A DNA stretch of 45,519 nt from Nemertoderma westbladi (taxonomy: Eukaryota > Animalia > Xenacoelomorpha): contig JAUCBJ010005107.1 of NCBI GenBank assembly GCA_032718475.1, positions 1 through 45,519 of the forward strand, given 5' to 3'. Shown in pieces: positions 5,086 to 40,237 of the stretch. Each line of letters opens with the position of its first letter. The stretch's first letter is position 1. Below the pieces are notes generated by a model. It did no database searches. It saw only the letters and a list, made by a program, of their open reading frames with translations, and was not told the DNA's origin. The position numbers and the translations under genes were made by a program.

Positions 5086-5907
5086 TTACTGGTGGTCAAA
5101 CTGAAACCTTCTCGTCAAATGTGAATGGGTCAAAGGTAACTATAAATTCCAAATCTTGTTCGCACTTTTAGACCTTTACCAGTTTAACTTGCTAATTTAT
5201 GTATCTTATAATGTCTGACAGCCTATACAAAATATTAACACAGCCGAAGCCAGTCTAACGCGGCGTATGACCCACCGGGTGTGGGAGTCTGGATTCTATG
5301 GCAGAGAGAGGAGTAGGCTACTTTGTATTATTCGATTGATCTCTACTATATAATCTCCAAAAACTATATTTATTTTCAAGGAAATAGCAACAGTTCCTTT
5401 TAGGTGCTGCGCTTTAAATACCACGCAGACTTATGACTTATACTATTTACAATGGATGGTCATGAGATAACAAATGTTTACTTTATTTAGGAATGTATTA
5501 TTAATCGTTCACACTCACTTAACTGAAAATAATACTGAAACACACTAATTTGCTGACTGTCACCAATTTTACTCATACATAAGGCTAAATTTAGCTCACA
5601 TACGTTGGGGGTTATGAAACAGCATGAACTCATACAAACCACTGTTATTTGAGCCAGGCAATTATTACTAGTGTTTCCCTCTGCTTACCTCAATAATCAA
5701 GAAAGCCGAGGGAGTTAACGGTTATTCATAAGTATTCTCCAAATATAAACATTTATCAAATAGGTTACAAAAGAAAATGCGTGCTGGCCTTTTTAGAGTA
5801 GTTCGCGAATTGCACAAAAACGACACATTTTAGCGGCAAAAGCTTTAACAAATCTGTATGTTTTATCACTTAATTAAATCCAGTGCCAATATCCTTTTGA
5901 GTGAAAT
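4895..5907 (+). repeat. Copy A of a ~310-bp duplicated segment, interrupted by the solo LTR (copy B is at 24641-24944)
   Basis: 4895-5156 plus 5856-5907 align contiguously to 24641-24944 with few differences. Confidence 0.9.
5157..5850 (-). mobile_element. Solo LTR of the BEL/Pao family, internally deleted
   Basis: Termini TGTTCGCAC...AAGCTTTAACA match the family LTR ends. 5-bp TSD AATCT at 5152-5156 and 5851-5855. Similar to the reverse complement of 24945-26040 but lacks the central ~400 bp. Confidence 0.88.
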
Positions 5908-5964
5908 TATAATCAAAAAAGCGAAAAGTAAGCACCCCTTACTTCATATACCCATATAATCTAG

Positions 5965-6581
5965 AAAAGCTACCGTTTCAATGCGTTATGTGTGGGGAAA
6001 GATTCAAACTAAATTATGAACTGAAAACGCACAGTCAAAAACATAGGAAAGACGGTATGTATGGTTGTGTTAAGTGCGGTAAGATATTTCTACATTATGA
6101 ACAGCTAACAGAGCACATACACAAGGCACAGTGCAAACAGCAGCCGTTTGTATGTGCTATGTGTTTTAAAAATTTTGAGGCTAAAAACACCCTAAGACAA
6201 CACAGACAGAGTAAACATACGAAAGAATGGTTGTATGGTTGTGGTAAGTGCGGGGAGAGATTTGAACATGATGAACAGCTGAAAGAGCACAATGCAAAGT
6301 GCAAAGAGCAGTCGTTTATATGCGGAATTTGTTTTGAAGACTTTGCAAATAGAGCCAACCTAAAACGACACCAAGGGCGTCAACATATGAAAGAATTGTC
6401 GCATGTCTGTGATAAGTGCGGGGAGAGATTTCAACATGATGAACAGCTGACAGTGCATAAGGCACAGTGCAGAGAACAGTCGTTTAAATGCAATATTTGT
6501 TCTGAGATCTTTGCAAATACAGCCAACCTAAAACGACACCTACAACAAGTACACAACAGGCTATATCAGTATAGTATATAG
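5965..6581 (+). CDS. Multi-zinc-finger protein, probable terminal exon (seven alternating C2H2/C2HC fingers)
   Basis: CxxC-x12-H repeats throughout ORF 5988-6581. The frame extends upstream through (E)KLPFQCVMC to a candidate AG acceptor at 5963-5964. AATAAA signals at about 6703-6716. Upstream exons were not identified. Confidence 0.8.
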
Positions 6582-7029
6582 TAATTATATATAGAATATC
6601 TTCTAGCTAACCAGGAACGTACTGTAGACTATTCAGTATTATTCTCGCAAGAGATGGTGCATCTGATCTTCAACAATTATTCAAAAAGTTTAGTAAAGCA
6701 ATAATAAAACAATAAATTCACAATTATTATTTACAAATTAAAATATATTGCTCAAGTGGAGAAGGTGTAAAAAATAAAATAGGGTTGATTTCTCTGATTC
6801 CACATTTCCATGGAAGGTACAATCCACAAGCGTGTTCGGTGTATTCACAAGAGATTGTACAACTGATCTACAATATTTTATTAAAAAAGGCTCAGGTCGC
6901 GATAACTATAAACACAGCTGGTCAATTGGATAATCGATCAATTTGTATTGCATAGCAGCATAGAGCAAAGATAGTCAATGACTGTTGGCTATTTGGATTC
7001 AATGTGAGGGGGTAACTGGATGCAAATAC

Positions 7030-8212: not shown

Positions 8213-8630
8213 TATTTACTGTAGAAACCCATCAGAACTTCTTGCTGTCAAGAAAAGAAAACATAAACAAACAAAAAAAACTTTGTTTGTTTGTCTGTTC
8301 GTATGTGCACATTGATATTGGCTTGGAAGGGAACGTGCTCTACTTGTTAAGAAGTCAAGTATATGTGCCTCTTTAACTCTGTCTTCGTTCAAGCCAATAT
8401 TCCATTAGAAAATCAGTCAGCTATAATCGCAACAGCTCTGAAGCAGACTTATTAAATATTGCTACTGGAAGATTATTGATACCACCCACTCTCTACCTCC
8501 ATATTATTAATGTATCAAACCATTATGATAGTGAGCGCCTACCCAGGTAGCACAAGTACGTAAATTTACGTTCATTATTCATCCAGACGTTCTGAATTCA
8601 TGTTCATATGACGTCATATTTCACCCATAG

Positions 8631-9866
8631 TGTTCGCGCTTTCAGACCTTTGGCAGTTTAACCCACCAAATTAAGATGTCTTCTAGATATTAAATCTGTT
8701 TTTAGTCTATGACAAGTATTTGATTCACTACACTAGTCGAAACCAATCTGTGCGCGATCATTCACCCGCTGGATATTCCCGGGAGATTGGGTTCGACGGT
8801 TTAATTTTATTGCTATGTAAGCCTAATGTATTATTCGAATGACAGTATTATATAATCTCTGACAATATTATTTACCTTCGGTAATATTAACAGTTCCTTT
8901 AGGACGTGGCGCTTTATCTATATAAACAGAGTTATGACTTAAACTACTCACAACGATATGGCTTAATTATAATTCACATATATGGCGCATTCTTTAGGAA
9001 TTGCTTCTTTAACAGACTCACTCATACACAATGCTGCACAATACTGCACACTAATCTGCCAATCTTCACTGATTTTAGTCACATATAAAAGGAACACAGG
9101 CTGACTCATGTAGGGTCTATCAAATAACATTAGATTCACTTCAAACCACTTCAACATAAGTCACAATCGTTATTGGTAACCTTTCTCTCTTACCTTCGGT
9201 ATATCAAGAATATTGGGTTTCGGGGTTATTTATCGTTATTCCAAATATAATAATTCATCAACCATATTATGAAGAACTGACAGTAAATAGCAGTATAAAA
9301 CAACAACTGAACACTGATTGTTACGAGTTTGCAATGTTTCAGCAGTCAGGATGTATGATCAGTCAGCAGTCCGCAGTAGTCGTTAGGTTAAAGGATATAT
9401 GCCCTTTATAATTAAACCTACTAGTGTAAGACTAAAAAACAGTAAAGCACAAAATACTTCCAAGCCGTTCTTTCTTTGGCTCAGGACTGAATGTAAACAC
9501 TGCACATAGGCATTGCGTCATTTCTCGGAAATTTTCTGTACAAGGAGCCACAAAAACGCTCTAATTGGCTGACTGAACTGAGAGACGCCGTAGAACAAAG
9601 GAAATCAACATGTATGAATGTCAGCTGTTAACCGTAGTCATAGTAACTACTGTTCAAGAGTAGCTATCACCCCTTTGCGTCACGAATTGCCATAGAATCA
9701 TAAAATATGCCTTTCACAGTACACATACGGAGGAAATAGGTCTTAGATCCTCTAAAAACACCGATACAGCAATAATACGGTCTCTTACGCTTATTAAATC
9801 AACTACAGAGTATTTTAATGTAAAAGATAATAAAAATAACGGGGCAATTCAGCAAAGGCTTTTACA
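8631..9866 (-). repeat. 3' LTR of element 1
   Basis: Direct repeat of 19226-20461. Only one mismatch noticed (9611 T vs 20206 C). Confidence 0.97.
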
Positions 9867-10049: not shown

Positions 10050-11229
10050 TGAAGGGTGCAATATGATTGCATCAGAAGGTGTAAGATCGTGGTCGAGGTA
10101 TCTGCCGTTTCGATATGCTTCTCCTCGAGCTGATTTTCCTCCGCTCGTAGCTGGATACGTTCATCCAAAAACTCTCGCAGAGAATAGGATCGTCCAAGTT
10201 CGATAACTTCTTAGAGATTCTGGATTTCCCAATCGAATTGAGATAAGGCCAATTCGTTTATCGATTGGACTCACTGTTATAACTTACGTTTATCTGAACA
10301 AACGCAGGTTTCCTTTTTGATCTTTTATAAAATAGCGTTTAACTCGTTTCGTACAACGCTCTCCTTCACCTCGATGAGGGGTTGTATCGCGTTAAACGTG
10401 GACGACCATACGGTTGGATAGTGATATTAGGTGTCCGCGTCACAATCCGGCTAGGTAAGATGGGCGGCTAGCTAGAAATCACTGTCGGAGTGTTACCGAT
10501 TAATTGTTAGGGTAGCACTAGATCTTTGAACAGTGAATACAGTCCGCGAGGATCCGCGACACCACCAAGATCGCAGGTCTGAGGTCCAACTAAGGAATGA
10601 GGAGGTTTGACCGAGTATTCCGGGACTCTGATCGTAAGGTTACTCCAGGATCGTTCGAGCCGAGTGAGCATAGGTGATACGTCAACAAGTTTCGGTTTAC
10701 GTGGATGTTTATGTCTTTCCGTTTATTAGTTGGGTCTAGGGCATTTATCGTAATAATACCAAAGACGCACGTCTGGTAGGGTAAACGCGGGTGATATTTA
10801 TTTGTTGTTACAATGCTTCTATCAAGAATTCCAAATATACGTTGGAGTTACCGCGTCCATTTGTTTCTTAAGTGTCTTTTCTTTCGAGTCGATTTCAAAT
10901 AGAATTTTCGCATTCGAATTTCCGTTTATGGTTCCGACTCCGCTGGGCAGAATATATAGTCGACATAGTCCGTATGGTGTAAATCGATAGGATGACCAGT
11001 AGTTAAGAAGCCCATATACGTACCATTACGCCGCGTATATCGAGCAGCGAATTTTCTATAGTCCAACTCGCGCGAGCTGCTCTTGGGACATTGGCGGTTC
11101 GATATAACGACCATCGTCCTCCGCAGCAGTTGGACTAACGTCGCCGCGTATTAAGCTATCAACAAACGCTTGTAAAAGTAGAGTATATCGCTCCCCGATA
11201 CCAAGACCATCTTCTATCAACTCCGTCAT
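10050..11229 (-). pseudogene. Degenerate accessory ORF of unknown function in the 3' (env-like) position
   Basis: MTELIEDG...DDGRYIEPPMSQEQLAR/ELDYRKFAARYTRRNGTYMGFLTTGHPIDLH, broken by frameshifts and stops. Clearly homologous to 31311-32439. Confidence 0.7.
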
Positions 11230-12876: not shown

Positions 12877-15800
12877 TTACGTTATGGAGTCCCTAGATGT
12901 TTGAAGGATTAGGGAGGTGGTCGTGGGAAGAGAATCTTGCCTTCCACAGTTTCCGGAGAGTCCTCCCTTCCCTTCCGATAAACACAAACGACCGACTGGG
13001 TGATTGAGTCGCTGCATCCTGAATACAATTCCAGGTTTCCTCTTCGTCCTGGAATAGTGACGATAGAAACATCGCTCAAAGTAGATGACGGCGTCACAAA
13101 GCCGATTCCAGGAGCTATAGTGGTCCGTCGCTCTCTGCAGGAGAGGTGAGAGTCCCTGCGAGACGTCTGATGTTCCAGAGCTCCAATCGCTCTCTCTGAT
13201 CTTCATGAAGGATCCACTCGCGGTGGGGAGGCCCAGATCCACGGCGTCGTCCCTGGCAACATGTAATACCGACAGATCTATCCCGGGTTCAAATAACTCC
13301 GATCCACACGTCCGGGTTTCAGGTTCGACTTTCTCCGCTCCCTTGGCTGGTATAATCTCAGTCGGAGTAAGATGGGGAGGCCATTCATTCTCCTTACTCA
13401 GGAAGTCGGGTTCACCTAATCGGTCTGTAGTATCTGTCAGTTCTTGAGGAGTTGCTCCTCTGGAAGCGATGTCCGTTGGATTAAACTTCTTGGGGCAATA
13501 TCTCCATTGATCTACATTGGAGCTAAGATTGTCATTATCTGAGGAGTGTGGTGTTCCCTCAGTTGGGTCGTCTCCCTCACTAGTATCATCTTCCCATTCA
13601 CTCATCTGGCAGACGCGATCTTGAAGCAGTCTTTCCCTGAGCGTTCTACCGGAAGGTCCAGTAAGGTACCAACCTACTCTAGTTCTTACCGCATAGGTCT
13701 GTAGTGGCTGCGGTTGAGCAGGCCGTTTCTCTAATGTCTCCAGCGCCTCATGCGCGTTTTGGCCGATGAGTATTTGCACTCCAGGATAATCAGTCTGGAA
13801 TCGAGGTATGTTAAGATGTTGGATGCTCTCATCCTCTTCCCAATTATAAAGGTCTGCTTGAGTAGTAGCGAAGTTCTTTATAGCCACCATTTTCACTGAC
13901 CTTATGCTATGTTCTCCTAGTTCGTCCTGGGGGGTGGACAACGCGCCTACATAATAATCAGCTGTTACTGTAGATTTCCAAACTTGCATGATTCCTGACA
14001 TGTTTAGCTTGGTTCGGAACTTGGGTTGTCCAGCAAAGATGACTTCGGCTAGTTCTTTATCGATGAATGTTCCTGTGCTACCGGAGTCCAGGAGGGCGTT
14101 CACTATATAGCTCTTCTGAGGTCCGTGGACCCGTAACTGGACTACAGGAAATTCTCGGATTCCTATATTGGAAGTTGGCGCTTTCCAAGATGGTTGTTGA
14201 TCTGAAGTAGTTAGGGTGAGGTCGCTGTCTGTGTCTTTCTCATACATGAGTGCTCGATACACTGCGGTGGTGTTTATTAGGTAACAGGATTCGTTTTGGT
14301 CGGAGAACTCGTCCGTATAGAATCCTTCCATCTCAGATTGATCAGTGTCGTTCACATCACTGAATTGGACATGTAGTTCGGACTCACTTACCTGACTCGG
14401 GCTGTTTCGTTCGAATTCCGTGTGCAACAAGATATGATGTTTTGCGCCGCACTTTGCACACCTTGCGTCGGAGTTACAGGTTCGCCGTTGGTGTCCTCGT
14501 CTGAGGCAATTATAACACAACCGCTTATCCCACATGATTTCACGTCTATCCTTTAGTGATTTCCTCAGGAATTTATCACACGCATTTAAACGGTGGGGCC
14601 CGTCGCACAGCACACATTTCGGCTTGATGTTACTTACTTTAACCTGTGCTATGTGGTGCACACTTGTTCTTTCCTCGGGCTTTCTCACCTGAATTCTTTT
14701 AGGAGACGTAGGAAGGGTTTTTTGTACCGGTTCCCTTCTGTCATTGGGTCGAGACTTGGATTTACTTACCTGATCTTTAGGCATTTTATTGACATAAGAT
14801 CTGTCAGTGTCTTTCCCGCTGTCCTCTCCTTGAGAAGTTTGGCTTTCACCTTCGTCGGTATAACATACTGGTGTTACCCTTCTCCTAGAAACGGGTTTCT
14901 CACTTACCTTGTTTTCCAATGTCTTCTCTCTGGACTGCCTTAGGAGCTGTAATTTCACTTCTCCATCTAAGAATGACATGAGATCAGCCATGGTAGGGTC
15001 TCGTCGTTGTTGTTCCATCATATATAACACTTTCTTATCCCAGCGTGTACCTACTCCACCTTTCGGTAAAGTAGAAGCCACTGCTCTAATAACCATAGTG
15101 TTCTGATACTCATGAGACTTACCTAGCCAATCTAATTGTCTGCAGATCTCCTGGATCTCATCGGAAAACTCGATAATTCCGCTACTAATAAACTTTCGGG
15201 GCGCTACTAACTTTGCATATAAGTATCCAGCGATGTTATTCCTATTACCATACCTGATGTTTAGTGTATCCCAAACTTGTCTTAATCCGTCTGGATGTCC
15301 AATAAACTTTAATGCCATTAACTTGGGAGATCCTTCCAAGCACTCGATGAGGTATCTAAGTTTTTCTCCATTAGATAGTACCGAGTTCTGTATGTTATCT
15401 TTGTAATATTCATTAAAAGGTAACCATTTCATCTCATCCCCATTGAACTTGACGATCTCTCCAACCTTTACCGCTTGTCGGGCTTCGGTTCTAGCCATTT
15501 GACGCGTAAAACTTTCTTGGGCCATTGTGCTATTTAATATCGAGTTATCGGTATATAAATTCCTCGGATTAGGATCAGTTCCATATGGAATATCATTACA
15601 AACAGGTCTATAATTACCCTTAATAGGGTTCACTATAGGAGTTTCTACTTCGCTAGCAGTATATATGCGCGTAGGCTCCACACCTTGCGCATGCAATACT
15701 TCAGACCTAACAGGTTGACACATTGTTACAGAGGGTGGTGGTATACCCTTTTGGGTGTTTACTAATTTGTCGCGTTCAAGCGCGATACTTTGCTGCACTT

Positions 15801-17007
15801 CTTGCAACTCTGGCAACTTCAGCCTACTTTCCCTTACTGTGCCCTTGAATTGCTGGACAGTCTCCTGCATCTGCCCGAGCAGGATATCCATCCCCCGCCG
15901 TCTCTCGTCCACCCATTCGACCGCCGAAGCGGGAGTCGCCAACGTTGTAGCGGGCGGACGAGGGACAACGGGCGACAAATTGTGAATATTTCGCTCGGGG
16001 TCCAGGACCTGAACTGTCTCTTGGGCAGTTCTGCGGGGCACAGGTAGCTTAGTGCTATGCAGAGGGAATTTAGAGGTAGTTTCAGGGAGCACATGTGCGT
16101 CTATCACCGAAGGGGTGATTTCAAGAACAGGCCTAATTATTTCAGGCTCATCTACTATAGTAAGGAGTCTTTCTATTTTAATTATTTGGTCTGCGGGCTC
16201 TGTACTACCTACTTTGGTGTTATTTAGTTGCCTTCTAACAGCTGGAGGCAAATCAGGCAATTTCTGCCGGTGGAATGTTCTTTTACGTCTGCTTTGACGA
16301 GATCTATTTCCTTTGCCTTCAGTATCGGTGGTATCGCCTTCTTCAGATGATGTATATCCCTGTCTTTTGGGAGTAGATCGATTCATCATCTGCATATTAC
16401 TAGCTGTTAACTGTTTACTGAAGTCGTCTTGCTTCTCTTGAAGCGTTTCCAACTCCAGTTGGGCGATCTCTTCAGCCGCTCTCCGTTCTGCTTCTGCTGC
16501 TGCCGCTTTTGCCTCTGCCGCTGCCGCTTTTACCTCTGCCGCTGCTTCTGCTGCTTTTGCCTCTGCCTCTGCCTTTGCTACTGCCGCTTTTGCTTCTGCT
16601 GCTTTTGCCTCTGCCTCTGCCTTTGCTACTGCCGCTTTTGCTTCTGCCGCTGCTTCTGCTGCTGCCGCTTTTGCCTCTGCCTCTGCTTTTGCTGCGGCCT
16701 TTCTGTCTTCTATACGTTTTTTCCTTACTTGTTCTTCTTGGTCTCTAGCGATGCGGAGTTGTTCATCGAATTTAGCTTGGTTCGCCGCTAACCTATCCAC
16801 ATCAATCGCATCTAACACAAGTTTGGCTCCTTCGCTATTAGGGCTAAGTCCCTCTAGCCTTCTCCTCAACTCTTCATCACCTAAAAAACGTTGATAGTCT
16901 GACAGATAAATGTCAATGGCATCCCTCTTATGCGGTTTCTCTGCTGTCACTTCGCTCTCGGTTGTATCTAGTAGACTGTCTGACAGGTTCTGCTTAGTAT
17001 CAGACAT
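12877..17007 (-). CDS. gag-pro: BEL/Pao Gag-protease polyprotein fused to an RNase H C-terminal remnant (RT and integrase absent)
   Basis: 1376-aa ORF with an Ala/Glu/Lys repeat and a DUF1759-type capsid region (KFNGDEMKW...EKLRYL). Three BEL-type Cys/His knuckles (CVLC..H..C, CYNC..GH..C, CAKC..HH..LH). Protease LLDSGS. BEL RNase H end motif WRYCP..NPTDIASRG. No YxDD or DDE. Confidence 0.93.
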   Translation of the reverse strand: MSDTKQNLSDSLLDTTESEVTAEKPHKRDAIDIYLSDYQRFLGDEELRRRLEGLSPNSEGAKLVLDAIDVDRLAANQAKFDEQLRIARDQEEQVRKKRIEDRKAAAKAEAEAKAAAAEAAAEAKAAVAKAEAEAKAAEAKAAVAKAEAEAKAAEAAAEVKAAAAEAKAAAAEAERRAAEEIAQLELETLQEKQDDFSKQLTASNMQMMNRSTPKRQGYTSSEEGDTTDTEGKGNRSRQSRRKRTFHRQKLPDLPPAVRRQLNNTKVGSTEPADQIIKIERLLTIVDEPEIIRPVLEITPSVIDAHVLPETTSKFPLHSTKLPVPRRTAQETVQVLDPERNIHNLSPVVPRPPATTLATPASAVEWVDERRRGMDILLGQMQETVQQFKGTVRESRLKLPELQEVQQSIALERDKLVNTQKGIPPPSVTMCQPVRSEVLHAQGVEPTRIYTASEVETPIVNPIKGNYRPVCNDIPYGTDPNPRNLYTDNSILNSTMAQESFTRQMARTEARQAVKVGEIVKFNGDEMKWLPFNEYYKDNIQNSVLSNGEKLRYLIECLEGSPKLMALKFIGHPDGLRQVWDTLNIRYGNRNNIAGYLYAKLVAPRKFISSGIIEFSDEIQEICRQLDWLGKSHEYQNTMVIRAVASTLPKGGVGTRWDKKVLYMMEQQRRDPTMADLMSFLDGEVKLQLLRQSREKTLENKVSEKPVSRRRVTPVCYTDEGESQTSQGEDSGKDTDRSYVNKMPKDQVSKSKSRPNDRREPVQKTLPTSPKRIQVRKPEERTSVHHIAQVKVSNIKPKCVLCDGPHRLNACDKFLRKSLKDRREIMWDKRLCYNCLRRGHQRRTCNSDARCAKCGAKHHILLHTEFERNSPSQVSESELHVQFSDVNDTDQSEMEGFYTDEFSDQNESCYLINTTAVYRALMYEKDTDSDLTLTTSDQQPSWKAPTSNIGIREFPVVQLRVHGPQKSYIVNALLDSGSTGTFIDKELAEVIFAGQPKFRTKLNMSGIMQVWKSTVTADYYVGALSTPQDELGEHSIRSVKMVAIKNFATTQADLYNWEEDESIQHLNIPRFQTDYPGVQILIGQNAHEALETLEKRPAQPQPLQTYAVRTRVGWYLTGPSGRTLRERLLQDRVCQMSEWEDDTSEGDDPTEGTPHSSDNDNLSSNVDQWRYCPKKFNPTDIASRGATPQELTDTTDRLGEPDFLSKENEWPPHLTPTEIIPAKGAEKVEPETRTCGSELFEPGIDLSVLHVARDDAVDLGLPTASGSFMKIRESDWSSGTSDVSQGLSPLLQRATDHYSSWNRLCDAVIYFERCFYRHYSRTKRKPGIVFRMQRLNHPVGRLCLSEGKGGLSGNCGRQDSLPTTTSLILQTSRDSIT

Positions 17008-18343
17008 ATTTGTGTGTACAGTTGAATGCCTACTGCTATATTATATTACAGTCTAAGCAAGTCTAGTAATTCAGTATTAACTGCTAGCCTAGTAATTAAT
17101 TACCGATACTGCTACTCAGTGTAGTAGGATATATATATAATATATTAGAACACCGGTATGCTTATGGTATATATAACTATATAAGTATTATTACAGACTA
17201 GGTTCATCACAGAATACCGGTATAATTTTAGCACAAATATATATAAATATATAATAGGCCTATCGGGAATACCGGTATACAGTTTACAGTTTGTAGTATA
17301 TATAATTCTGGACTAGAATTAATTATAAGTACCGGTATAATTTCAGCCTAAATTTATAGAAATAAAGATAATAGGCCTATCGTAAATACCGGTATATCAA
17401 TTATTTTAAATAATTGAATTTCTGTATTTTAGGGTTACTTGGTTACTTTACTTACTTTACTACCGTTATTTGAGCAGTAATCCAACTGATATTGAGACCT
17501 AATGGTTGTATGGTAGGCCTACTATTTATAAATCGTTAGATTTGATTTATAATATATATATACCCGTTTTAATGGGTTTTGTCTATGTTTGAAATAAATG
17601 TTATTATTTCTGGGGAGTAATCACTACACAAAGCGGTGCGCTTTCAGTGAAGTGTTACGTATAGGACACTAAAACAAATAATTCTAATTTACCTAAGTTA
17701 CTTAATACTACAAATTACGTACAATTCGGGTTGAGATTACAATCTCTAAATAAACACAAAAATTTACAAAAACACAAATACGAATTTTTAGGGTAATTTT
17801 ACAAGAAGTCTACAAACCAGCCTAACAAAGGGTTAGAAAACCGGTTATTACAACGGACAGAGTACTACGGTATTTGAAATAATAAGTAGTAGTAAATACA
17901 CTGCGTTGTCTAGATAGGAAAATACCACCGCCTGACGACCTATAGCCGTATCGCTATAGGTTCTACGTTATGTATCACGGAGTGTTCCTACCTAGAAGTT
18001 GATAGAGCTAATCGAATGTGCCTATCAACCACTTTACAACACAAATATAATGCCTACACTAATTATTATCGGAAAGCACTGTACACTAAACCCTAAATTA
18101 GGTACGAGTACTTGTACAACAGATAATCAGTAATTAAATATACTTGAACAGCTAAAAGAACCACGGCATCTGCTGGAGTGACCGATGCACAAAATCACCA
18201 GTCTTTACCTACGCCAAGCAGCCCGTGTAGTACCGAGGTTAATTTAACTATAGCGGTATGTATAACAAACACAATTACTGTAGGAACAAACTTGGGGACT
18301 TGAATGTTGCGAATAATCGCATAAACTCTGAATAATAAATATT

Positions 18344-18903
18344 ACGCTACGCGTACAAACTACTCAAACAAAATACAGACCGAACACTGACAGACTACTA
18401 TCAAGCCTAAACAAACCACGGTATATGCAGACTCCGAAATGATTAGGGAGTATGCGCTCTAACCCAGTAGTGCGACTTATTCTTTAGTTGGGGGTTTACC
18501 TTACAGCCTTCGCTGCCCCTACTGCCTAATCGTACTTAATCGGACAGATGATCCACACACGCGGCAATCCGTTCAGACCTAATAACAGCCAGACAACTAT
18601 CCAGCCTACAAATTATCTAAATAAAATTATACGCTACCCGTACAGACTTACACAAACAAAGTACAGACTAAACGATGGCAGACTACTCTCAAGCCTAAAT
18701 AAACTACAGGACATGCAGACTCCGAAATGATTAGGGAGTATGCGCTCTAACCCAGTAGTGCGACTTATTCTTTAGTTGGGGGTTTACCTTACCGCCTTGG
18801 CTGCCCCTACTTCCTAACCGTACTTAATCGGACAAGTGCTCTACACACACTGTAACTCGTTCGGACTTAACAGCAATCAGACAACAGCTCAGCCTACAAA
18901 TTG
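18344..18903. repeat. ~288-bp tandem duplication in the 5' leader of element 1
   Basis: Two copies containing gcagactccgaaatgattagggagtatgcgctctaacccagtagtgcgac. Element 2 has one diverged copy (about 26290-26560). Confidence 0.88.
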
Positions 18904-19212
18904 TCTGTACAATCTGATCAGGTTTACACGCCTTCTGTTCAATACTGGCCTACAAACAAATAAAACTTGACAGAAATAAGTAGAAATCTCAATAAAAAAC
19001 CAGGGCTGCAGTCCCTGATTAATTATTAAGGCCTACTGGTATATAATTATCAAAATCGAATAATACTGCTGTACCTGTACTGCTGTAGGTACCGGTCCGG
19101 GTGGTTAGGTAGTCAGGCCTACTGGTACGGGTTCTGGCAGTTGGGCCTACTGACCTACAGATGTACCGGTTGACCGGTACTTTCAACTTTATTGCTTACT
19201 GCAACAAAGAAT

Positions 19213-19225
19213 ATATATCCTTTAA
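19213..19225 (-). other. Primer-binding-site position lacking TGG; complementary to an LTR-internal 13-mer
   Basis: Minus strand after the LTR reads TTAAAGGATATAT. The LTR minus strand carries ATATATCCTTTAA at 19995-19983. Confidence 0.6.
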
Positions 19226-20461
19226 TGTTCGCGCTTTCAGACCTTTGGCAGTTTAACCCACCAAATTAAGATGTCTTCTAGATATTAAATCTGTTTTTAG
19301 TCTATGACAAGTATTTGATTCACTACACTAGTCGAAACCAATCTGTGCGCGATCATTCACCCGCTGGATATTCCCGGGAGATTGGGTTCGACGGTTTAAT
19401 TTTATTGCTATGTAAGCCTAATGTATTATTCGAATGACAGTATTATATAATCTCTGACAATATTATTTACCTTCGGTAATATTAACAGTTCCTTTAGGAC
19501 GTGGCGCTTTATCTATATAAACAGAGTTATGACTTAAACTACTCACAACGATATGGCTTAATTATAATTCACATATATGGCGCATTCTTTAGGAATTGCT
19601 TCTTTAACAGACTCACTCATACACAATGCTGCACAATACTGCACACTAATCTGCCAATCTTCACTGATTTTAGTCACATATAAAAGGAACACAGGCTGAC
19701 TCATGTAGGGTCTATCAAATAACATTAGATTCACTTCAAACCACTTCAACATAAGTCACAATCGTTATTGGTAACCTTTCTCTCTTACCTTCGGTATATC
19801 AAGAATATTGGGTTTCGGGGTTATTTATCGTTATTCCAAATATAATAATTCATCAACCATATTATGAAGAACTGACAGTAAATAGCAGTATAAAACAACA
19901 ACTGAACACTGATTGTTACGAGTTTGCAATGTTTCAGCAGTCAGGATGTATGATCAGTCAGCAGTCCGCAGTAGTCGTTAGGTTAAAGGATATATGCCCT
20001 TTATAATTAAACCTACTAGTGTAAGACTAAAAAACAGTAAAGCACAAAATACTTCCAAGCCGTTCTTTCTTTGGCTCAGGACTGAATGTAAACACTGCAC
20101 ATAGGCATTGCGTCATTTCTCGGAAATTTTCTGTACAAGGAGCCACAAAAACGCTCTAATTGGCTGACTGAACTGAGAGACGCCGTAGAACAAAGGAAAT
20201 CAACACGTATGAATGTCAGCTGTTAACCGTAGTCATAGTAACTACTGTTCAAGAGTAGCTATCACCCCTTTGCGTCACGAATTGCCATAGAATCATAAAA
20301 TATGCCTTTCACAGTACACATACGGAGGAAATAGGTCTTAGATCCTCTAAAAACACCGATACAGCAATAATACGGTCTCTTACGCTTATTAAATCAACTA
20401 CAGAGTATTTTAATGTAAAAGATAATAAAAATAACGGGGCAATTCAGCAAAGGCTTTTACA
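19226..20461 (-). repeat. 5' LTR of element 1
   Basis: Direct repeat of 8631-9866, upstream of the gag ATG on the minus strand. Confidence 0.97.
19996..20170 (-). promoter_or_regulatory. Candidate LTR promoter: CCAAT box, TGACGCAA (CRE/CEBP-like) site and TATAAA
   Basis: agccaat(t/c)agagcg and aaatgacgcaatg are conserved in the same order in the otherwise diverged LTR of element 2 (25115-25175). Confidence 0.55.
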
Positions 20462-21299
20462 CATAGGATGCTATTGATGCTGAACGTTCAATAGTTCAAA
20501 GTTGGCCGTCAGATGTACCGTAATATGAAGGGTAATTGAACGTCGGGGGGGGGGGGGGGGGGGGGGGTATCCCTACACCCTATCCTACACGGCCCTACAC
20601 CTAGAATGCCCTATACATTTAGAGAAGGAAGCATCAGAGTATATATGAAAATATTTAATCGATAGTGTCTTGATATCTTATGGTGATGATCCACAAATTC
20701 GCATTCGATTAGTCATATTTATGTTATTTTATTAATTAATTTTAAGACCTTATAATTGGTATTTGAAATTTTATATATTCAAAAAGGCAATAATACACAC
20801 AAAAAGCAATTGAAGCGTAAGAAAGGTTCATTTAATATGATCTGTAAAATCAAAAATAATGTTTTGCGATTAAAAAAAATTACCATCCGCATAATACTGT
20901 AATAGAAGCTTGAACAATCCAACGCCCATATATCCGCTTTATCTCAACAAAATTTAATGGTACAGTATTTGGTGACAACATAGACAACATTTAGCGGTTT
21001 TCTTTGTTTGTTATTTTCTTGGTTCAATAGGCCGAATTAATATATTGTAATAATTTTGTTACAATTTTTTGTGACATAGTGTCTCAGCTTTAGTAATCAG
21101 AGGAATCAGCTTTGTTTAATTTTGATGATATTTGTTGTTTAAAATGTGTCAGCATTGTATTGGTTATCAGTGTTTTGTTGTGTGATTAATTTTGTGATTA
21201 CTTAAAGTAATTGTTTTGTATTGGGAAGGAACCATTAGTCCAGGTATAAGCGGAACCACCCCAACAATAGAAGGAGTGGGCTAAGCAACACAAAAAATA

Positions 21300-24640: not shown

Positions 24641-24944
24641 GGTTACCATGGACCCCACCCTCTCTACCGGCCTATATGAGGTCCTGTCTCCCCCTCCTGT
24701 TCCCGCTACCATCAAGGGATATACTACTGTATTTAACTTTTTTAATTTTATTTTCTCATTCAGTTTCGTTTGTCCTATATTAGATTAGATCATCTTGTTA
24801 TAGTAAATAAAACAAATAAATAAAATACTTACTGGTGGTCAAACTGAAACCTTCTCGTCAAATGTGAATGGGTCACTATAAATTCCAAATCTTGATGTTT
24901 TATCACTTAATTAAATCCAGTGTCAATATCCTTTTGAGTGAAAT
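24641..24944 (+). repeat. Copy B of the duplicated segment (empty site for the solo LTR; target of element 2)
   Basis: Contains a single AATCT at 24888-24892 where copy A has AATCT-LTR-AATCT. Confidence 0.88.
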
Positions 24945-26040
24945 TGTAAAAGCTTTTGCGGACAAAATAAGTCATTTTGAGCAATGCGCTGAAATACTCT
25001 AAAAGACTTATAAACTTATGCAACTACGCGTCTGTCCAAACTCAGAGCTGAGATGACGAAATCTACCAGCTGTTTCTTTGTGTAAAGGATCTGTGTTAGT
25101 TGTTGATATATTTCAGCCAATCAGAGCGATCTCCCTTTACCTGTGCTCTGTAGCCTATGTAAAATGACGCAATGCGGCAAATTTATCAGAATTAATTCAT
25201 TCTGATTTTCTGGCTCTGTTCTGACTTCGCCCGAAAAACATCAGTGGCTTGAGATGGGTCATAAGAACGCAAATCTATTAACAACAAAACACTGCATTTC
25301 ATACATTTCAAACGTATCAAACTTTCATATTATACCACATATCATCGCAATTCTGAATTCTGATACTGCAACACTGCTGTTGCGCCGCTAACACCGTTTT
25401 TTACTGTTTTATACTATTATTAGCTGTTGTTATATATTAATGGATGTTATATTTGGAGAATACTGATGAATAATCGTTAAATCCCCCTGAACTTTCTTAA
25501 TTACTGAGGTAAGCAGAAGGATGTATCAGTAGCAATTGTGGCTCAATTTATAGTGGTCTGTATGAATTTAATGCTATTTCATAACCTCAAGGTATGTGAG
25601 TTGCAATCCTCCTTATATATGACTAAAATCGGTGACAGTCGGCAAATCAGTGTGTGTTAGTGTGATTATTGGTACAGAAGTTGAGTGTGAAGGTTAATAA
25701 AGCATTCCTAAAGAATGCGTCATTTGCAAAATATCACGGCCACTCATTGTAATTAGTGTCAGACATAACTCTGAGTGATACTTAAAGCGCCACGGCCCAA
25801 CGGAACTGTTAATATTTCCCTGAAAGTAAATATAGTTGCTGGAGATTATATAGTAGTGATCAATCGAATAATACAAAATAGCCTACTCATCTCTCTACAA
25901 AAGAATCCAGTCTCCCACACCCGTGGGTCATACGCCGTGCTAGACTGGCTTCAGCTGATGTCAATTAGTACGGGCGATTATCAACTCATAAGACACTTAA
26001 ATTAGCAGGTTAAACTGTTAAAGGTCTAAAAGCGCGAACA
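24945..26040 (+). repeat. 5' LTR of element 2
   Basis: Termini match the reverse complement of the element 1 LTR ends. 25272-25571 is repeated at 37623-37929. Confidence 0.9.
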
Positions 26041-27813
26041 TTTATAGATTTTCTCTTTTTATTGCTCAGTAGGCAATAAACCCTACCGTACCGGTCGAAT
26101 GGTAACCTAGGCTCAGCGGTACCGGTCCGGTACCATATAGCAGTATTACTTCGATTGTGAAATATTGTATATCGTGGGCTGTTAGAGAATTAGGGATTGA
26201 TCACCCCTTATTTCTTGTATGGTTTACTTATTTCTGTTGGCTTTATTTATCTGTAAGTGTAGTATCGAGCAGGCTGAATTACAGGCTCATAGGCTGAATT
26301 GTTGCCTGATTGTTGTTAGGTCTGAAGTGGATTACAGTGTGTGTAGGTTATTTGTCCAATAAAGTGCTAGTTAGGAAGTGGTGGCTTCCAAAGTTGTAAG
26401 GTAAATCCCCCTCTAAAGAATAAGTCGTACTACGTAGTCTAGAACGCTTACTAACTAACAATTTTGGAGACTGCATATACTGTGGTTTATTTTAGGCTTG
26501 GCGGTAGTCTGTCAGCATTTTTGGTCTGTGTTTTGTTTAAATAGTCTGTACAGGTAGCGTAATATTATTATTCAGAGTTTATGCAAGTAATTTATACCAT
26601 CATGTCACCAAGTTTATTCCTTACAGTAATTCTGCTTGTTATGCATACCGTAATAGTTATAAATTAACCCCGGTACTACTTCAGGACTGCTTGGCATAGG
26701 ACAGACTGGTGATTTCTTTAGCATCGGATGAGTAAGCCTAAATACTCCGGTCACTCCAGCAGATGCTGTGGTTCTTTTAGCTGTTCACGTATATTTAACT
26801 GCAAGTTATATGTTGTATAAGTGCTAGTATCTAATCTAGGGTTTAGAGTACAGCACTTTCCTGAAAGTTAATTTAGTGTGTACGCAGTATATTTGTGTTG
26901 TAACGTGGTTAATAGGTCTGTTAGCATAGGCTTCGATAATTAATCTCTAGGTATAGGACACTCTGGGTACGTTTGTTTATAGTGTAGACTATAAGCCGTC
27001 ATACGGTGGCATTTCCTTATCTGGACAACACAACGTATAGAATACTACTTTATTGGTTTCAAAATTCCTAAATTCCCTATCAGTCTGTAAGAACCAGAAA
27101 TTCAAAATTTTTGTTAGTCTGGTTTGTAAAATTCTTGTAAAATTACCCTAAAAAATTGTACATGTAACTTTGTTTATTGTTTGCTTAGAGATTGTGTAAT
27201 ATCAACCCGATACGTAAGTAATTTGTAGTGATAAGTAACTTAGTTAATTAGAACTATCAGTATTTAGTGTCTAACAAGTAGCACTCCACTGAGAGCGTCA
27301 AACCTCTGTGTAGTGACTTCGTACTCAGAAATAATAACATCTATTTCAATAATTGACAAAACCCATTACGGGTACATATATATTTGTAAATTTAACTCAA
27401 TCAGATTTATAAATTAGTAGGCCTGTTAGAATCAATTAGGTCTTAATATCAGTTGAACCTATTGCTTAATATCAGTAATAGAGTAAAGGGGAAATAATTC
27501 CTAAAATCGGATATAATCAGTTATTATTTAATTATTGATAATATCGGTGTCTACAGTAAGCTTATTATACATTTATATAACTTAGGCTAAACCCATATAC
27601 CGGCATTCAGTGATTAATATCAGTCTGTATCTGTAGTCTTAGTAATACTGTTATATATACTATAGAGTGTATACTGGTATTATAACACTTGTTATCTACC
27701 CACGTTACATTGAGTAACAATATTTGGTAACTATAAGACTGACAGTTGATAATGATTTACCTTAGACTTACTTTAACTGTTGTTATAGTGATAGGCATTC
27801 AACTGTGATAATT

Positions 27814-31310: not shown

Positions 31311-32439
31311 TAAGGTACGCGACGCGAGTCAACATACGACGGAAGATGCTGGACGTTATATCAAACCACCGATGTCCGAGGCGCAGCTTAAACGTGAATT
31401 GGACTATAGAAAATTCACGGCACGCTATACGTATCGCAATTGTACATATATGGACTTCTTGACTACTGGTTATCCTATCGATTTACACAATGCGGACGAT
31501 GTGGATACCGAAAGGGAGATGATTTTATTTAAATATCACTCGCAGCGGAGTTGGAACGACAAACTGAGAATCGAACATGAAAATTATATTCGAAACCGAC
31601 TTGAAAGAGTAGATGTTGAAGAACCAGACAAGCGTACTAACTTTTACAAATATTTAGAGTTCCTGAGAGAAACTTATCTCAATGTAGCTAGTCAACAAAA
31701 TCTAGAAACTCGATATCCACAAGGTATACATCCTAATCCTATGATGGAACTTAAACAATTGTATTTTACATGATATATCTTACCGCTAATTGACCCCTAC
31801 CTGTTATACCGGATAGCTTCGAACAGATGGAGGAATATTATAAAACGGGAGAAAAGTCGCTAGTGTTTCCTTTACAAGATGTGCGTCTTTGGTATTACTG
31901 CGATGAATGCCCTAGACCCAATCAACAAACGGAATGCCATAAACACCCGCAGAGACGTTGCACTAAACATAGTTTCACTCGCTATACTTACGGGAGTTTT
32001 GAGCGAAACCTGTTCGACGTTGCCACCCACGCTCGCTCGACTCAAACGATCCTTAAGTAAACCTTTGATCAGAGTTCCGGAATACTTGGTCAGACCTCCT
32101 TATTCCCCAGTCCGACCACAGACTCTCGACCCTAACAGTATGACAGACCCTCCTGAGTTGTACTCGTTGTTCAAAGATCTGGTGCTACCCGAACAATTAG
32201 TCGGTGGCACTCCTGTTGTGGGCTCCTTGGATATTTGCCCATCCTACCTAGCCGGATTAGAACGCAGACATCTAATATCTCCGTTCAACCCATATAATCG
32301 TCCCGGTTTGACTCCAATACAACCTGTCACCGAGGTGGAGAAAAGTGTCATACGGAACGCACTGGACGCAATTCGGCAAAAGATCGGAAAGGGAACCTAT
32401 GATTGTTTAGACAAATGTAGACTACATGGACTACAGTAG
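31311..32439 (+). pseudogene. Unknown accessory ORF fused in frame to the last gag1 knuckle
   Basis: ORF 31258-31773 runs from HHILLHTEF directly into EDAGRYIKPPMSEAQLKRELDYRKF. Homology to 10280-11160 (minus) continues to about 32430. Confidence 0.7.
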
Positions 32440-32688
32440 ACGGTGGGGTCGTACTCCGGGAGATTGCCATCACCCCGGAGAAACACAACCTGATGAAATA
32501 TACCACACACCGGGAGAGGGATACAGAGTGTACCGGTACGAGGATGAAGACAGGAGAGGGGATCTGAGAGAAACTTCCCATCGGAACTTAGCTGCCGATT
32601 GAGAATATGGTAGTCACGGGGAGGCCCGACAGGTGAACCACACCCAACAACAAAAGAGTCTGTATTCCTACCATCGAGCGCGCTGGAA

Positions 32689-35600
32689 GTGCAAGCGATG
32701 GGAATGGCAATACTCATCGACGCGCTGAAGACTAGGGTCGAGCTGCCGCCAGTGGAGCCCTTCAAGTTTGATGGGAGTAAGCCGGAGGAATATCTGCAAT
32801 TCCGGCGTATGTACAGCAATGAAATCTTAACGAAAAACCTGACGCAGGTGGAGTGCCTTAAACATCTACAAGTCTACACAGGGGGGCCAGCATACGACAT
32901 CATGAGACAATACCAAGGTATTGAAGGAGGATTCACGACTGCATGGCGAGCCCTGGACAGGGAATTCGGGCATCCTGCGAAGATTATCCGACAAACCTTA
33001 AGGGGAATAACATCAGGCGGACTTCAGGACAACCCTGTCAGCATCAAAACCTTCGCCAACAAAGTAGAAAAGGCGCTAATAGTATTAAAGACCCTGGATG
33101 CACCTTACGAACTCAATGCATCAAACAACATCACTACAATAGCGCAGGCACTGCCGATCTGGCTGAGAAACAAGTGGATTAAGATCGCTTTCTCCACCCG
33201 AGAGAGGAATGGTGCGGAGCCAGGGCTGGAGGAAATGTGGAACTTCCTTCACTACGAAGCGGAAATCATCACAGACCCAGTCTATAGTGAGGACAGTCTC
33301 GGTAAGGTACTGAAAGCGGAATGCAGCCGATCTAAACGAGAACATAGTTCGGCGGATGCGCTATACAAGGAACGCTACAATCCCAATTACAAATCTCAAT
33401 TGCATAGAAACGGGTTCCACAAGACCATAGACTGCAAGCATTGGCAGGCGTTACTTAAACAATATCGGGCAGCCTACACTGGTAAGAATGGACTATGTCA
33501 TCGATGCGTGGTAGGAGGGCACAGATTTGCCGAGTGCAAGGAACCTCCAGTAAAATACGACGAGGTTGATGGAAATGGAGGCTAAACGATGGCGACAAGC
33601 ACCACGGGAGCGAAGAAAAGGGGAATGGTACTACTCGGTGAGGATAATAGGAGAGGATGAGCTGTCGGTCACGACGCTAATGTTGGTCGACAGCGGAGCA
33701 GCGTTCACACTAGCGGAAAGTTGGGTGGCCGAAAAGATAGGGTTGCGGACGAGGCCAAGCAAAATGGCAGTAACCACCATCTCGAGTAAGGATGATGTCT
33801 TGAGGATGAGAATGGTGCATTCCGAAATATCAGTGATAACACCAGGGTGCGATTATGGGGCTACGATCGATCCCATTCAAATAATATAATTGATTAATAT
33901 AAACGCCAGGCAGCCCACAAAGATCGAGGTCGAGCAATACCAGTACCTGGATGAGAATGATTTCTCCGTACCCGAACTGGACGTCCCGAAAGTATCTCCC
34001 ATAGTCGGCATGGATTGCCTGACAGCCCACGAGAGACTACGGACCGTATTCGGCGAGGATAGGGAGTGAGACCCGATGGCGATTCTCACGCCATTCAGAT
34101 GGACGCTCAGTGGCCCAATTAAGACCAGAATCCCGTTTTATGTCGGAATCCTCAGGGTGCATGTTTTCGGGCTCAATGAAGGAAATGGAGGATGAAGGAG
34201 CAGAGGAACAACTCAAGAGGCTGCTGCGGCAGGACTTCGAAGGGTTGAAGGAGACTGGGGTCGGGACCTCGGTGGAGGATAAACAGGCGTTGGAGAGCGT
34301 GAAGAACTCGATGAAGTGGTAAGGAGGGCGGTAGACCATAGGGATGAAATGGAAACAACTGAAGTTGCCGCTACCAGATAACAAGAGGATGGTCTTGACG
34401 AGGCTCCGAAAGTTGAAGCAGATACTCAAACGGAGCCCCGAAAAAAGGATGAATACATCCACAAGACGTTTAAGAAGTATGTGGACAGAGGGTGGGTGGT
34501 GGAGTTGCCGGTCGATGAACCTATTTGCTATTTGCCACTGCATATGGCTTTGGATCCTAAGAAGGGCAAACTAAGGATGGTGGTCAACGCGTCGGCCAAG
34601 ACTAATGGCAAGAGTCTGAATGACTACCTGCAGGAAGGCCCCAACATTTACAACTCGAGGATAGAGGTCCTGTGGGAAAGCACGCCTTCACGTGCAATAT
34701 AGAAGGCATGTTCAACCAGGTTCGAGTGACAGAGGAGGACAGCGATAGTCAGCGCTTCCTGTGATACAACGGCGATGAAGAACCGTCGGAGATACTGATA
34801 TACAAGATGGTAGTGCAGAACATGGGGGCCAAATCATCCTTGTTCACTACGACTACAGCTGTGAGAGACACGGTGTAGGGTAAAGAGGGAGAATACAGTG
34901 AGAAGGCGATCGACATGATTCGATGCGGATTCTATGTGGACGATGAGATAGGATCTGGAAACACGGTTGAAGAAATACTCGACGTGTACGGTGCGAAGTT
35001 CGCGACATACTAAAAGGATTGGGGTTCAACCTCACAGAATTCCAGTCCAACTCCGAATAATTTATGGAGGCCATAGAAGATAAACAACCAGAGACAATGA
35101 TAAACAAACCTACAACAGCAAAGGGGCAGATTATGGCGGACAAGAGGATAGAGTCGCAGCAGATGGCACTAGGGATCGTATGGAACTGGGAGATGGATGA
35201 GTTGGAGTACCAGGAGGGCGCCGAAATCCATACTAAATGAGGCTCTGTGTCATACATAGCGAGGATTTATGATCCCCTAGGCCTGGCATCCCCGTTGTTA
35301 GTCATGGGGAAACAGATATTGAAGAAAGTGTATAAGTTGAATGATGATTGGGACGCGGAGATCCCGGTGGAGATAAGTAGACAATGGGACAGTGTTTTCC
35401 GACGCATCCTTGGAAGCATATGGAGCGGCACTTTATTTGGTACAGTGAAAGGGGGCCCATAAGCCCAGGCTTGTGTTTAGTAAACCGAGGTAGATGCCAC
35501 CAGATTCAGCATCAGTGCCAAAACTCGAGCTAATGGCTGCGAGATTAGGGCGACAGCATACTTGATGGAAACTATACCGAGTATAGTACTACTGTCCAGT

Positions 35601-37489
35601 ATACTACTGGACAGATTCTATGGTAGTATTAGGGTGGCTACATAACGAGAAGACATGTTACCCTATATATGTGGTGAACAGGGTGGACGAGATAAGGGTG
35701 ACAACAGATCTGGAAAAGTGGCACTACTGCCCAACCGACTACAATCCAGCAGATCTGCTATTGAGGGGCATTGTACGCCATGCTTTCTCGAGAAAGCAGG
35801 AGTTGTGGCAGCATGGGCCATACTTCCTTAACGATAGGCCGAGTTGGCCACCAATGAGGAAGGTAGACCCAGGTACAGAGGAAGTAACAGTAGAGGAGGA
35901 GTGAGAGGAATCGGAGGGGGAGGAAATATACAGCCAATTGTCGAGGGAGATTAAGGAGGCGCCACCATAACTGAAACCGAGAGAATCATGTGGCAACCCA
36001 ACAGATAGGTTGCTCAGTTACAGCTCCAGCTGGTATAAGACTAAGAAGCTGGTAGCATATCTGAGGGCCTACAGAGATTTCCTCAGGGGAGTTGGTAAGG
36101 ATAGCAAAACGAGACCCACTATCGATCTGGAAGGGGTGGCCAAAGCCGTGATACGATACGAGCAAAGGAAGGGGTACGAGGACGAAGTGAACAGCGTCAG
36201 CAAGCAACAATGCCTTCATCAAGACAGCGAACTCAACGCACTGTCGCCACACAATTGGACGATGATGGGATCCTGGTGATGAATTCCAGGGTGGTAAACA
36301 ACAACAGCCCAGTCATTCCACCGAAACCGATAATAATCCCCAACAAGTCACCAATAGTCTACCAGATCATATGGGATTCCCATAAATCTATACTACATGG
36401 GGGTACTAACCAGACCCTGACAGAGATCCGGAAGACGTTCTGGGTTATCCAGCTCAGAAAGATGGTGAAGGCGGTAGTGAGGCAGTGCCAGACCTGCCGA
36501 CGGACGAAGAAGGTGAGGGCCATATAGGACATGGTGCCATTACCAGCCAACAGGGTGACGCATCACGAGCCACCATTTACACACTGCGGCATGGACATGA
36601 TCGGGTCGATTAAGATAAAGGTGATGCGGCATATGGAGAAACGCTACGGCATTATCTTCGTCTGCAATAATACTAGGGCGGTGCGGATAGAACTAGCCAA
36701 GGATGCTACGGCATCGGCATTTATTAATGCACTAGAGAGGTTTGTAACCTGCAGGGAAGGGACGGTTGAGGTATTATATTCAAACAATGGGACTAACTTT
36801 GTGGGCGCAGAGAATGAGTTAGCCGAGGCCCTCGACATTCTGGAGGGAGATGATGTCAGGGTGGCAATGAGGAAACACCTTATAAGGTGGGAAAGGAGAA
36901 CACCATATGCGCCACATACATTAGGCTGTGTGGAGCGGCTTGTGGGAAGCTCCAAACGACTATGACCAAACTGATGAACAACCACATGGTCACGGAGGAC
37001 GTATTGAGGACGGTGTTAGCAAAATGTGAGGGGATTATTAATAGCCGACTGCTATACCCCAAGAATGACGACCCAGAATCACTGGATGTCCTCACACCAG
37101 CACACTTACTCATGGAGAGACCAGCGACGATTGACATGCGAAGTGTGGATCCAGATGATATACGTTCGCGTCAAAGTTGGAAAGTCGCCAAGGCAATAAG
37201 CGCAGAGTATTGGACAAGGTGGATACAAGAGTACCTCCCAACACTACATAAGAGGAGTAAATGGAGGAACAGTCACAGGGAACTAAAGAAAGGTGACTTG
37301 ATAATTGTCACAGATGACACAATTATCAATAACCAGTGGAGACTAGCTAGGGTAGTAGAAACCTACCCCGACGAGGATGGAAGGATTAGATCCGTGGAAG
37401 TAAGGATCGGAAGAAATATAGGGGCCAAAGAAAGGAAGACCTACAGGAGGGTGGTAGGAAAGTGTTGCCTATTGGAAGGGTCGCCTTAG
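32689..37489 (+). pseudogene. gag-pol: Second BEL/Pao gag plus pol (protease, RT, RNase H, integrase), disrupted
   Basis: Capsid LPPVEPFKFDG...; knuckle CHRC..GH...C; protease LVDSGA. RT YLPLH...KLRMVVNAS...SLNDYL..GP and YVDD (34933-34944). IYDPLGL and WHYCPTDYNPADL. Integrase H..GG...CQTC, PFTHCGMD, SNNGTNFVGA, and C-terminal WTRWIQEYL...DGRIRSV. Confidence 0.93.
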
Positions 37490-37622: not shown

Positions 37623-37929
37623 AATCTATTAACAACAAAACACTGCATTTCATACATTTCAAACATATCATTTCATACTTTTCATATTATATTACATATC
37701 ATCGTAATTCTGAATTCTGATACTGCAACACTCCTGTTGCGCCGCTAACACCGTTTTTTACTGTTTTATACTATTATTAGCTGTTGTTATACATTAATGG
37801 ATGTTATATTTGGAGAATACTGATGAATAATCGTTAAATCCCCCCTTAACTTTCTTAATTACTGAGGTAAGCAGAAGGGTGTATCAGTAGCAATTGTGGC
37901 TTAATTTATTGTGGTCTGTATGAATTTAA
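37623..37929 (+). repeat. Partial 3' LTR of element 2
   Basis: Aligns to 25272-25571 with scattered differences. Preceded by a G-run/C-run and cut off by the Gypsy fragment. Confidence 0.88.
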
Positions 37930-39770: not shown

Positions 39771-40237
39771 GTGTTCAATGTTCTTTTATGTTAATAACGA
39801 ACCTGCCTATTAATAGGCCAGGGCAGTTCTTGTCAAGAGTTGAGCCGTTTAAAAACACGATGTGTGTGGTTGTGTGTGTATAACCATCCAATATCTCAAA
39901 AACTCAAGCAGGTACGCAAAAATTTTCATAACAAACTCTCCATAAATTTTGGTTGCGCACAAGACTGTATATTTTTTGTGGAGTTTCGATCACGGGGTCA
40001 CTGAAAAATAGCGGTTTTGAAAATTTAAAGTCGAATTTCACCGATTTCAACTCGTCGAGTATGCACCAACTTTTTTATTTGAGATATTCAGTCATCTGAG
40101 CAACATATTTGAGCCTCAGAATCTTTTCAAATATCGCCAATCTCGCACAGAACGTCGCCAAAATTTGTTAGTCCGGCAAAAAAACGCACAAATTCGTCTA
40201 AAAGAGTAAATTATTTGATTGCAGAATAATATGATTC

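Follow-up and report, generated by a model that had tools for sequence, protein, structure and literature searches.

The window, a stretch of 45,519 nucleotides from Nemertoderma westbladi (contig JAUCBJ010005107.1), holds two LTR retrotransposons of related subfamilies, here called E1 and E2, and a solo LTR of a third subfamily (Table 1). Host sequence is represented by a coding stretch of CCT1/TCP1-alpha (43431-44276; at 74-82% identity to the proteins of many invertebrates, with none close), a C2H2 zinc-finger open reading frame lies at 5913-6581, and tandem repeats occupy 42041-42722 (68 bp) and 833-1229 (19 bp). Two copies of one host repeat (5851-5912 and 24888-24949) received the solo LTR and E2, with insertion points about 55 bp from each other, and a target preference is possible. 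A remnant of an E2 LTR (37623-37932; 94% alike to 25272-25574) is placed between a broken second BEL gag-pol (32614-37489) and a Ty3/gypsy-like gag-protease-RT fragment (38002-39791). The first base of this remnant corresponds to base 2 of the candidate primer described below, which could reflect either the 5' end of an RNA or a rearrangement at a later time.

E1 is read on the minus strand, and its two LTRs differ from each other solely at 20206 (5' versus 3' LTR). Its open reading frame codes for a Gag with a DUF1759 domain (E=1.7e-11) and three Cys-His knuckles (aa 809, 842 and 861), followed by a protease with the motifs LLDSG (aa 983) and LIG (aa 1091), which correspond to the BEL/Pao hallmarks as defined in the available part of PMC554778. 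By the sequence of its Gag and protease, its TG...CA LTRs and its target site duplication, E1 is a member of BEL/Pao (Belpaoviridae), and its closest protein matches bear Pao-type domains. In a tree of the knuckle-protease region, E1 sits on a long branch without firm placement. The protease joins the end of RNase H directly, most of which is gone, and neither reverse transcriptase nor integrase was found in E1 in any frame, so that the element was mobilised by enzymes supplied in trans. The original prediction had deduced from the near-identical LTRs that the element transposed recently; the single LTR difference and the 5-bp duplication bear out the date, with the correction that the enzymes were not its own. 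Judged from these features, E1 is a recently inserted, non-autonomous copy. Contigs point to a very high-copy E1 family, depth not being equal to copy number. The extra 3' coding region gave no Pfam match among the E2 open reading frames (31319-32443).

Table 1. Positions in the window of the features of E1, E2 and the solo LTR.
Feature	Position	Strand	Remarks
5' LTR of E1	19226..20461	-	1236 bp, TG...CA
3' LTR of E1	8631..9866	-	1236 bp, TG...CA; one substitution versus 5' LTR
5-bp target site duplication of E1, upstream copy	20462..20466	-	other copy 8626-8630
E1 open reading frame: Gag (DUF1759, triple Cys-His) and protease (LLDSG, LIG)	12877..17040	-	
Degenerate extra 3' coding region of E1	10261..11144	-	common to E2 (31319-32443)
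Conserved CCAAT and TGACGCAA motifs, promoter-like	20108..20163	-	common to E1 and E2; CCAAT at 20163, TGACGCAA at 20115
TATAAA-containing word	19997..20005	-	possible TATA box; alternatively pairs with 19204-19211 as a second arm
Candidate self-primer in E1 5' LTR	19983..19995	-	LTR nt 467-479, 757 nt before LTR end
Same 13-mer in E1 3' LTR	9388..9400	-	primer source in the alternative U3 model
Hypervariable stretch	19900..19982	-	starts directly past candidate primer 3' end; depth drop, joints, loose ends
Splice-donor-like AG/GTAAG	19784..19790	-	kept in all three related LTRs (19790, 25507, 5690)
Predicted stem, LTR end 19230-19243 with 19340-19351	19230..19351	-	
Predicted U5 hairpin	19245..19264	-	invariant loop
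Primer-binding position of E1	19213..19225	-	flush with LTR end, no TGG
Predicted hairpin past primer site	19187..19209	-	contains acceptor-like YAG (19200) and AATAAA (19193-19188); E2 keeps the two
5' LTR of E2	24945..26040	+	subfamily diverged and decayed; U5 and leader about 70% alike
E2 candidate self-primer	25271..25281	+	759 nt before LTR end
E2 primer-binding position	26041..26051	+	flush, 10/11 paired
Solo LTR, third subfamily	5157..5850	-	5-bp target site duplication; without promoter/primer region

As the original prediction had stated, no TGG-type primer-binding site follows the 5' LTR of E1: TGG is absent from the first 21 nt, and the nearest one is 223 nt away. The first 13 nt past the LTR form an exact complement (13/13) of a segment inside the LTR, in the correct polarity and flush with the LTR end, again as claimed. 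Such a length was reached in 0/300 dinucleotide shuffles of the E1 LTR, the analytic chance expectation is 1.2e-4 hits per LTR, and the controls, host sequence next to the 3' LTR and next to a solo LTR, gave only 4-5 nt. The proposed 13-nt duplex is thus exact in E1, but its 13th base is private to this copy, the site differing from E1 there in 99.8% (X1) and 97% (X3) of contig depth, so that the duplex in most copies of the family probably measures 12 bp. The remaining 25 positions of both arms showed no majority change among the variants listed for the E1 family contigs, and joints and loose ends of these contigs lie at 19982. A primer assembled across a splice junction was rejected for E1 and E2, the best junction matches being 8 and 7 nt versus contiguous matches of 13 and 10 of 11. 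The LTR-end patterns of the element had no match in metagenome or viral contigs, and protein scans of the viral contigs returned nothing.

E2 carries the same arrangement at a homologous site set by five shared anchors. Between E1 and E2, the primer sites in the LTR differ in columns 5, 6 and 10 (3/11) and the post-LTR partners in columns 3, 5, 6 and 10 (4/11). All three columns changed on both sides stay paired in E2 (P=0.0011 if the changes were independent), a covariation of binding site and LTR that the original prediction had called for and that here compares two subfamilies, with site and partner scored by contigs without linkage in one copy and with variants being those listed. The single mismatch of E2 is in column 3 (26043), where 98% of contig depth reads a pairing base (two runs, 38 and 26 contigs), a share to which other subfamilies contribute; among the contigs that extend to 26052, as many as about half may not carry the pairing base. 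One contig is paired at 11/11 positions, and column 12 of the E2 site varies among contigs. Taken alone, the E2 match is moderately significant (0.05 expected per LTR; exact matches equalled in 74/300 shuffles). Contig joints in E2 begin at 25280-25284, i.e., at the 3' end of the primer, in 10/14 cases. Conservation therefore ends with the primer in both subfamilies, which fits a cut and strand transfer as in Tf1, and selection on pairing predicts the same.

The promoter-like motifs and a TATAAA 5-10 nt upstream of the candidate primer are located where the original prediction had placed them. With the usual TATA-to-start spacing of about 30 nt, this TATAAA (20005-20000) would set a start near 19975, past the candidate primer. 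Only one TATAAA is found in the LTR with 1.2 expected by chance, E2 reads CATAAGAA at this place with no majority change among the variants listed, and in none of five contiguous comparators (see below) is the site preceded by a TATA-like word at 25-35 nt. In both E1 and E2, an ATAA word is kept 10-11 nt before the 11-nt site, and ACTGC is kept 31-33 nt past the TATA-like word. The caveat of a TATA-driven start downstream of the primer, which the original prediction had raised itself, is thus weakened by the chance level of TATAAA, the E2 reading and the comparators, yet it is not removed, the ATAA word being common to both subfamilies. In Tf2, alternative transcript starts can include or omit the primer (excerpts of PMC5341516). 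As a second arm, the word can pair with the T-tract past the site, convincingly so to the eye, but 335/1193 (E1) and 191/1053 (E2) LTR windows equal it (18-28%); over seven cases, second-arm pairing gave a Fisher p=0.013, driven by one comparator (L024), and is a weak hint at best.

Splice-like signals surround the site. Splicing from the donor-like sequence in the LTR to the acceptor-like sequence past the site would leave a Gag mRNA devoid of the primer site. The AATAAA lies about 33 nt past the 5' LTR in a predicted hairpin and is followed by a palindromic ACCGGT stem-loop; in E2, the counterparts are an acceptor-like site at about 26070 and AATAAA at 26075-26080.

In structure prediction, an RNA starting at 19995 forms the duplex with a probability of about 0.98 (z -3.9 on 20 shuffles). 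The predicted probability is 0.59-0.94 if the RNA begins at 19993-20000 and 0.03-0.08 if it begins at 20004 or further upstream; for the decayed E2 it is 0.03-0.1. Folds of this length are weak evidence either way. The U5 hairpin and the LTR-end stem are predicted with 52/54 cells paired in three LTRs and two double changes, a score equalled in 48/500 shuffles.

Other BEL/Pao elements were collected by a metagenome scan, which yielded 80 integrase loci. The query was made from homologues of the second pol of the window, and the comparator sample is biased accordingly. After 34/80 loci shorter than 4500 nt had been set aside, 46 were left, 28 with and 18 without a terminal repeat; unnamed BEL integrases from a representative search were not used further. 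A self-complementary post-LTR site was present in 14/28 loci, representing 11 families, with the LTR end set by both copies in five of these loci and elsewhere by a shuffle-calibrated scan. A TGG-type site was found in five others (L016, L045, L046, L052 and L077), none of them self-complementary, and nine were assigned to neither class. The complement is contiguous (11-15 nt, offset 4-5 nt; 0-2 per 100 shuffles) in L013, L017, L023, L024 and L032. It arises only across a GT-AG junction (11-15 nt, offset 0-4; 0-1 per 100 shuffles) in L010, L011, L018, L026, L034, L039, L050 and L058, and together with L038 this type accounts for 9/14 self-complementary loci. By inspection, the 3' LTR copy of L038 (at 6918-6930) is devoid of exactly the GT-AG intron of L039:131-672 and L041:4359-4905, and its joined form complements the post-LTR site over 11 nt, starting right at the LTR end. 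Throughout the 16 self-complementary cases, the paired block begins 0-5 nt past the LTR end, and the TGG site of L045 and L046 is at 4 nt. The post-LTR sites of the 11 comparator families are unrelated, each matching its own LTR.

L020, counted among the loci assigned to neither class, has an 11-nt match (0/100 shuffles) in low-complexity sequence with an unverified LTR end, and matches of 16 nt in L006, L020 and L056 were edge artefacts and were dropped. The post-LTR sequences of L049:102 and L059 (LTR end at scan position 670) resemble those of L038 and L058, with 9-nt flush complements that were not significant on shuffles.

In an integrase tree (a quick tree with midpoint root), ten self-complementary and five TGG-type rows were parted by one branch with an SH-aLRT of 97. 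Four loci that were classed only after the tree had been labelled all fell on the self-complementary side, where the second pol of the window is also found, on a long branch. The trees were quick and FastTree reconstructions, with E1 having no integrase placement.

Taken together, a self-priming signature in BEL/Pao, consisting of complement, position, covariation and recurrence, is present at the level of sequence, and to this extent the original prediction is supported by the covariation in E2 and by the same arrangement in 14/28 testable loci. A retroelement primer must anneal beside the LTR end, and at the E1 site no primer candidate other than the element's own sequence was seen, which leads to the reading that E1 primes its minus strand with a fragment cut from its own 5' RNA, similar to Tf1. 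We put the probability of this reading at about 0.68. Transcript start, cut and priming are inferred. Transcription would start at or slightly upstream of 19995, and the 5' end of the RNA would fold back over a loop of 757 nt closed by the conserved U5 stems. The RNA would then be cut past 19983 by a nuclease, which on the model of Tf1 would be the RNase H belonging to the reverse transcriptase of a helper element, and the freed 3'-OH would prime at the LTR end. Strong-stop DNA would stop at the cut and be transferred to the 3' LTR, and copying of the primer during plus-strand synthesis would rewrite the binding site. As the primer would be copied into its own binding site, the two should stay matched through change, and a primer derived from the 5' end would best account for perfect pairing not extending beyond 11-13 nt. 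For Tf1, the available part of PMC11042837 describes that about half of the cDNA retains the copied binding site at the 3' end.

Other explanations have to be weighed against this reading. The pairing might be structural, as a 5'-3' circularisation or as a switch aiding strand transfer, splicing or packaging, with a different primer starting DNA synthesis. The position of the TATAAA, the acceptor-like site and the AATAAA hairpin directly past the duplex would suit such a role, and covariation fits selection on any pairing. However, the paired block sits where a primer is needed, 0-5 nt from the LTR end in 16/16 cases and much like a TGG site, and circularisation alone, the fallback named in the original prediction, leaves priming at the LTR end unexplained; a purely structural role is thus considered unlikely. 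Slightly less likely still is a primer taken from U3 of the 3' LTR or from a second RNA, in which case transcription would start near 19975 and the genome would be cut near its 3' end and prime itself. The TATAAA and a YR/ACTGC about 30 nt further on in both subfamilies would agree with it. Against it stand the limit of perfect pairing at 11-13 nt, as a long 5' body would probably be copied further, the CATAAGAA of E2 in place of the TATA word, the hypervariability or replacement of the region around the predicted start in many copies, and the loss from a cut RNA of the R region needed in strand transfer.

Priming by a host RNA, such as a tRNA half, a mitochondrial tRNA or a small RNA, would render the LTR match secondary. 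A precedent exists in half-tRNA priming in Ty1/copia lineages (according to excerpts of PMC6317226), but the E1 and E2 sites differ at 4/11 positions, the 11 comparator families each match their own LTR, and neither an Rfam match in 18900-20600 nor a tRNA gene in the window was found, which makes this explanation improbable. Least credible of all is that AT-rich sequences match by chance, or that an inverted copy without function arose a single time. Both arms are indeed AT-rich and the 13th pair is private to E1, but the shuffles, the three compensatory changes and the recurrence in 11 other families have largely refuted it.

Beyond E1, it might be speculated that a branch of BEL/Pao dropped tRNA priming for self-priming, that in many families the spliceosome joins two LTR exons into the primer, and that contiguous primers as in E1 and E2 reflect intron loss, as in L038. 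The chances of this wider scenario are rated somewhat below even. If self-priming in BEL/Pao is true, none of the three LTR superfamilies would be without it, its origin in animals would be an independent one, and BEL/Pao elements without an annotated primer-binding site would be explained. Replication would then be tied to start-site choice and splicing, and might be independent of the tRNA supply and of tRNA-fragment defences. The window offers two natural, covarying versions with exact coordinates.

To our knowledge, self-priming is proven only in the Tf1 group and predicted in a few plant lineages. With regard to BEL/Pao, no paper assigning self-priming was found by a search that lay outside supplements, Repbase, GyDB and subscription journals, where an earlier mention is possible; the main text of a BEL/Pao survey (PMC3118150) does not contain the words 'primer', 'PBS' or 'tRNA'. 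Among tRNA-primed BEL/Pao elements, Achilles uses tRNA-Tyr at a TGG-type site (available part of PMC4580426). Achilles and the five TGG-type comparator loci share with E1 the superfamily, TG...CA LTRs and Gag motifs, and these five loci lie opposite the self-complementary loci on the integrase branch. Cer7 of C. elegans, a BEL element, reportedly encodes a tRNA-like primer of its own, with a TGG site; as in the reading favoured for E1, the element itself would supply the primer, but E1 has no tRNA-like sequence.

Excerpts of PMC6317226, PMC4600332, PMC6934838 and PMC5443660 describe Tf1/sushi as self-priming and give Tcn1 and TAR as predicted cases. The rule for predicted self-primers, according to the available part of PMC6317226, asks for a complement to the LTR of 10 bp or more that begins 0-5 bp past it. 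E1 falls within this rule, which was used for Tcn1 (Ty3/gypsy) and TAR/Houba/Osr-1 (Ty1/copia); these are plant lineages of other superfamilies, and in them as in E1 self-priming is a prediction only. In Tf1/Tf2, Tj1 and the sushi group, the post-LTR sequence is complementary to a short LTR segment (excerpts of PMC4600332 and PMC10085805). Like Tf1/Tf2 of S. pombe, Tj1 of S. japonicus and the Tf1/sushi chromoviruses, E1 has no tRNA site, and its primer site is directly at the LTR end. A predicted U5 stem-loop and a stem adjoining the site are common to E1 and the Tf1 group as well. The Tf1 primer has a length of 11 nt. E1 differs in its 757-nt loop within an LTR of 1.24 kb, and compared to the Tf1 'pretzel', as outlined in the available part of PMC10085805, no third duplex was found downstream of its primer, where the stretch is hypervariable and the 3' flank is predicted to fold on itself in the YAG/AATAAA hairpin. 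Many BEL/Pao relatives differ further from the Tf1 group in that their complement is formed across a splice junction. With a BEL/Pao Gag and protease, E1 is not a Ty3/gypsy chromovirus, and the likeness to the Tf1 group would be one of mechanism only.
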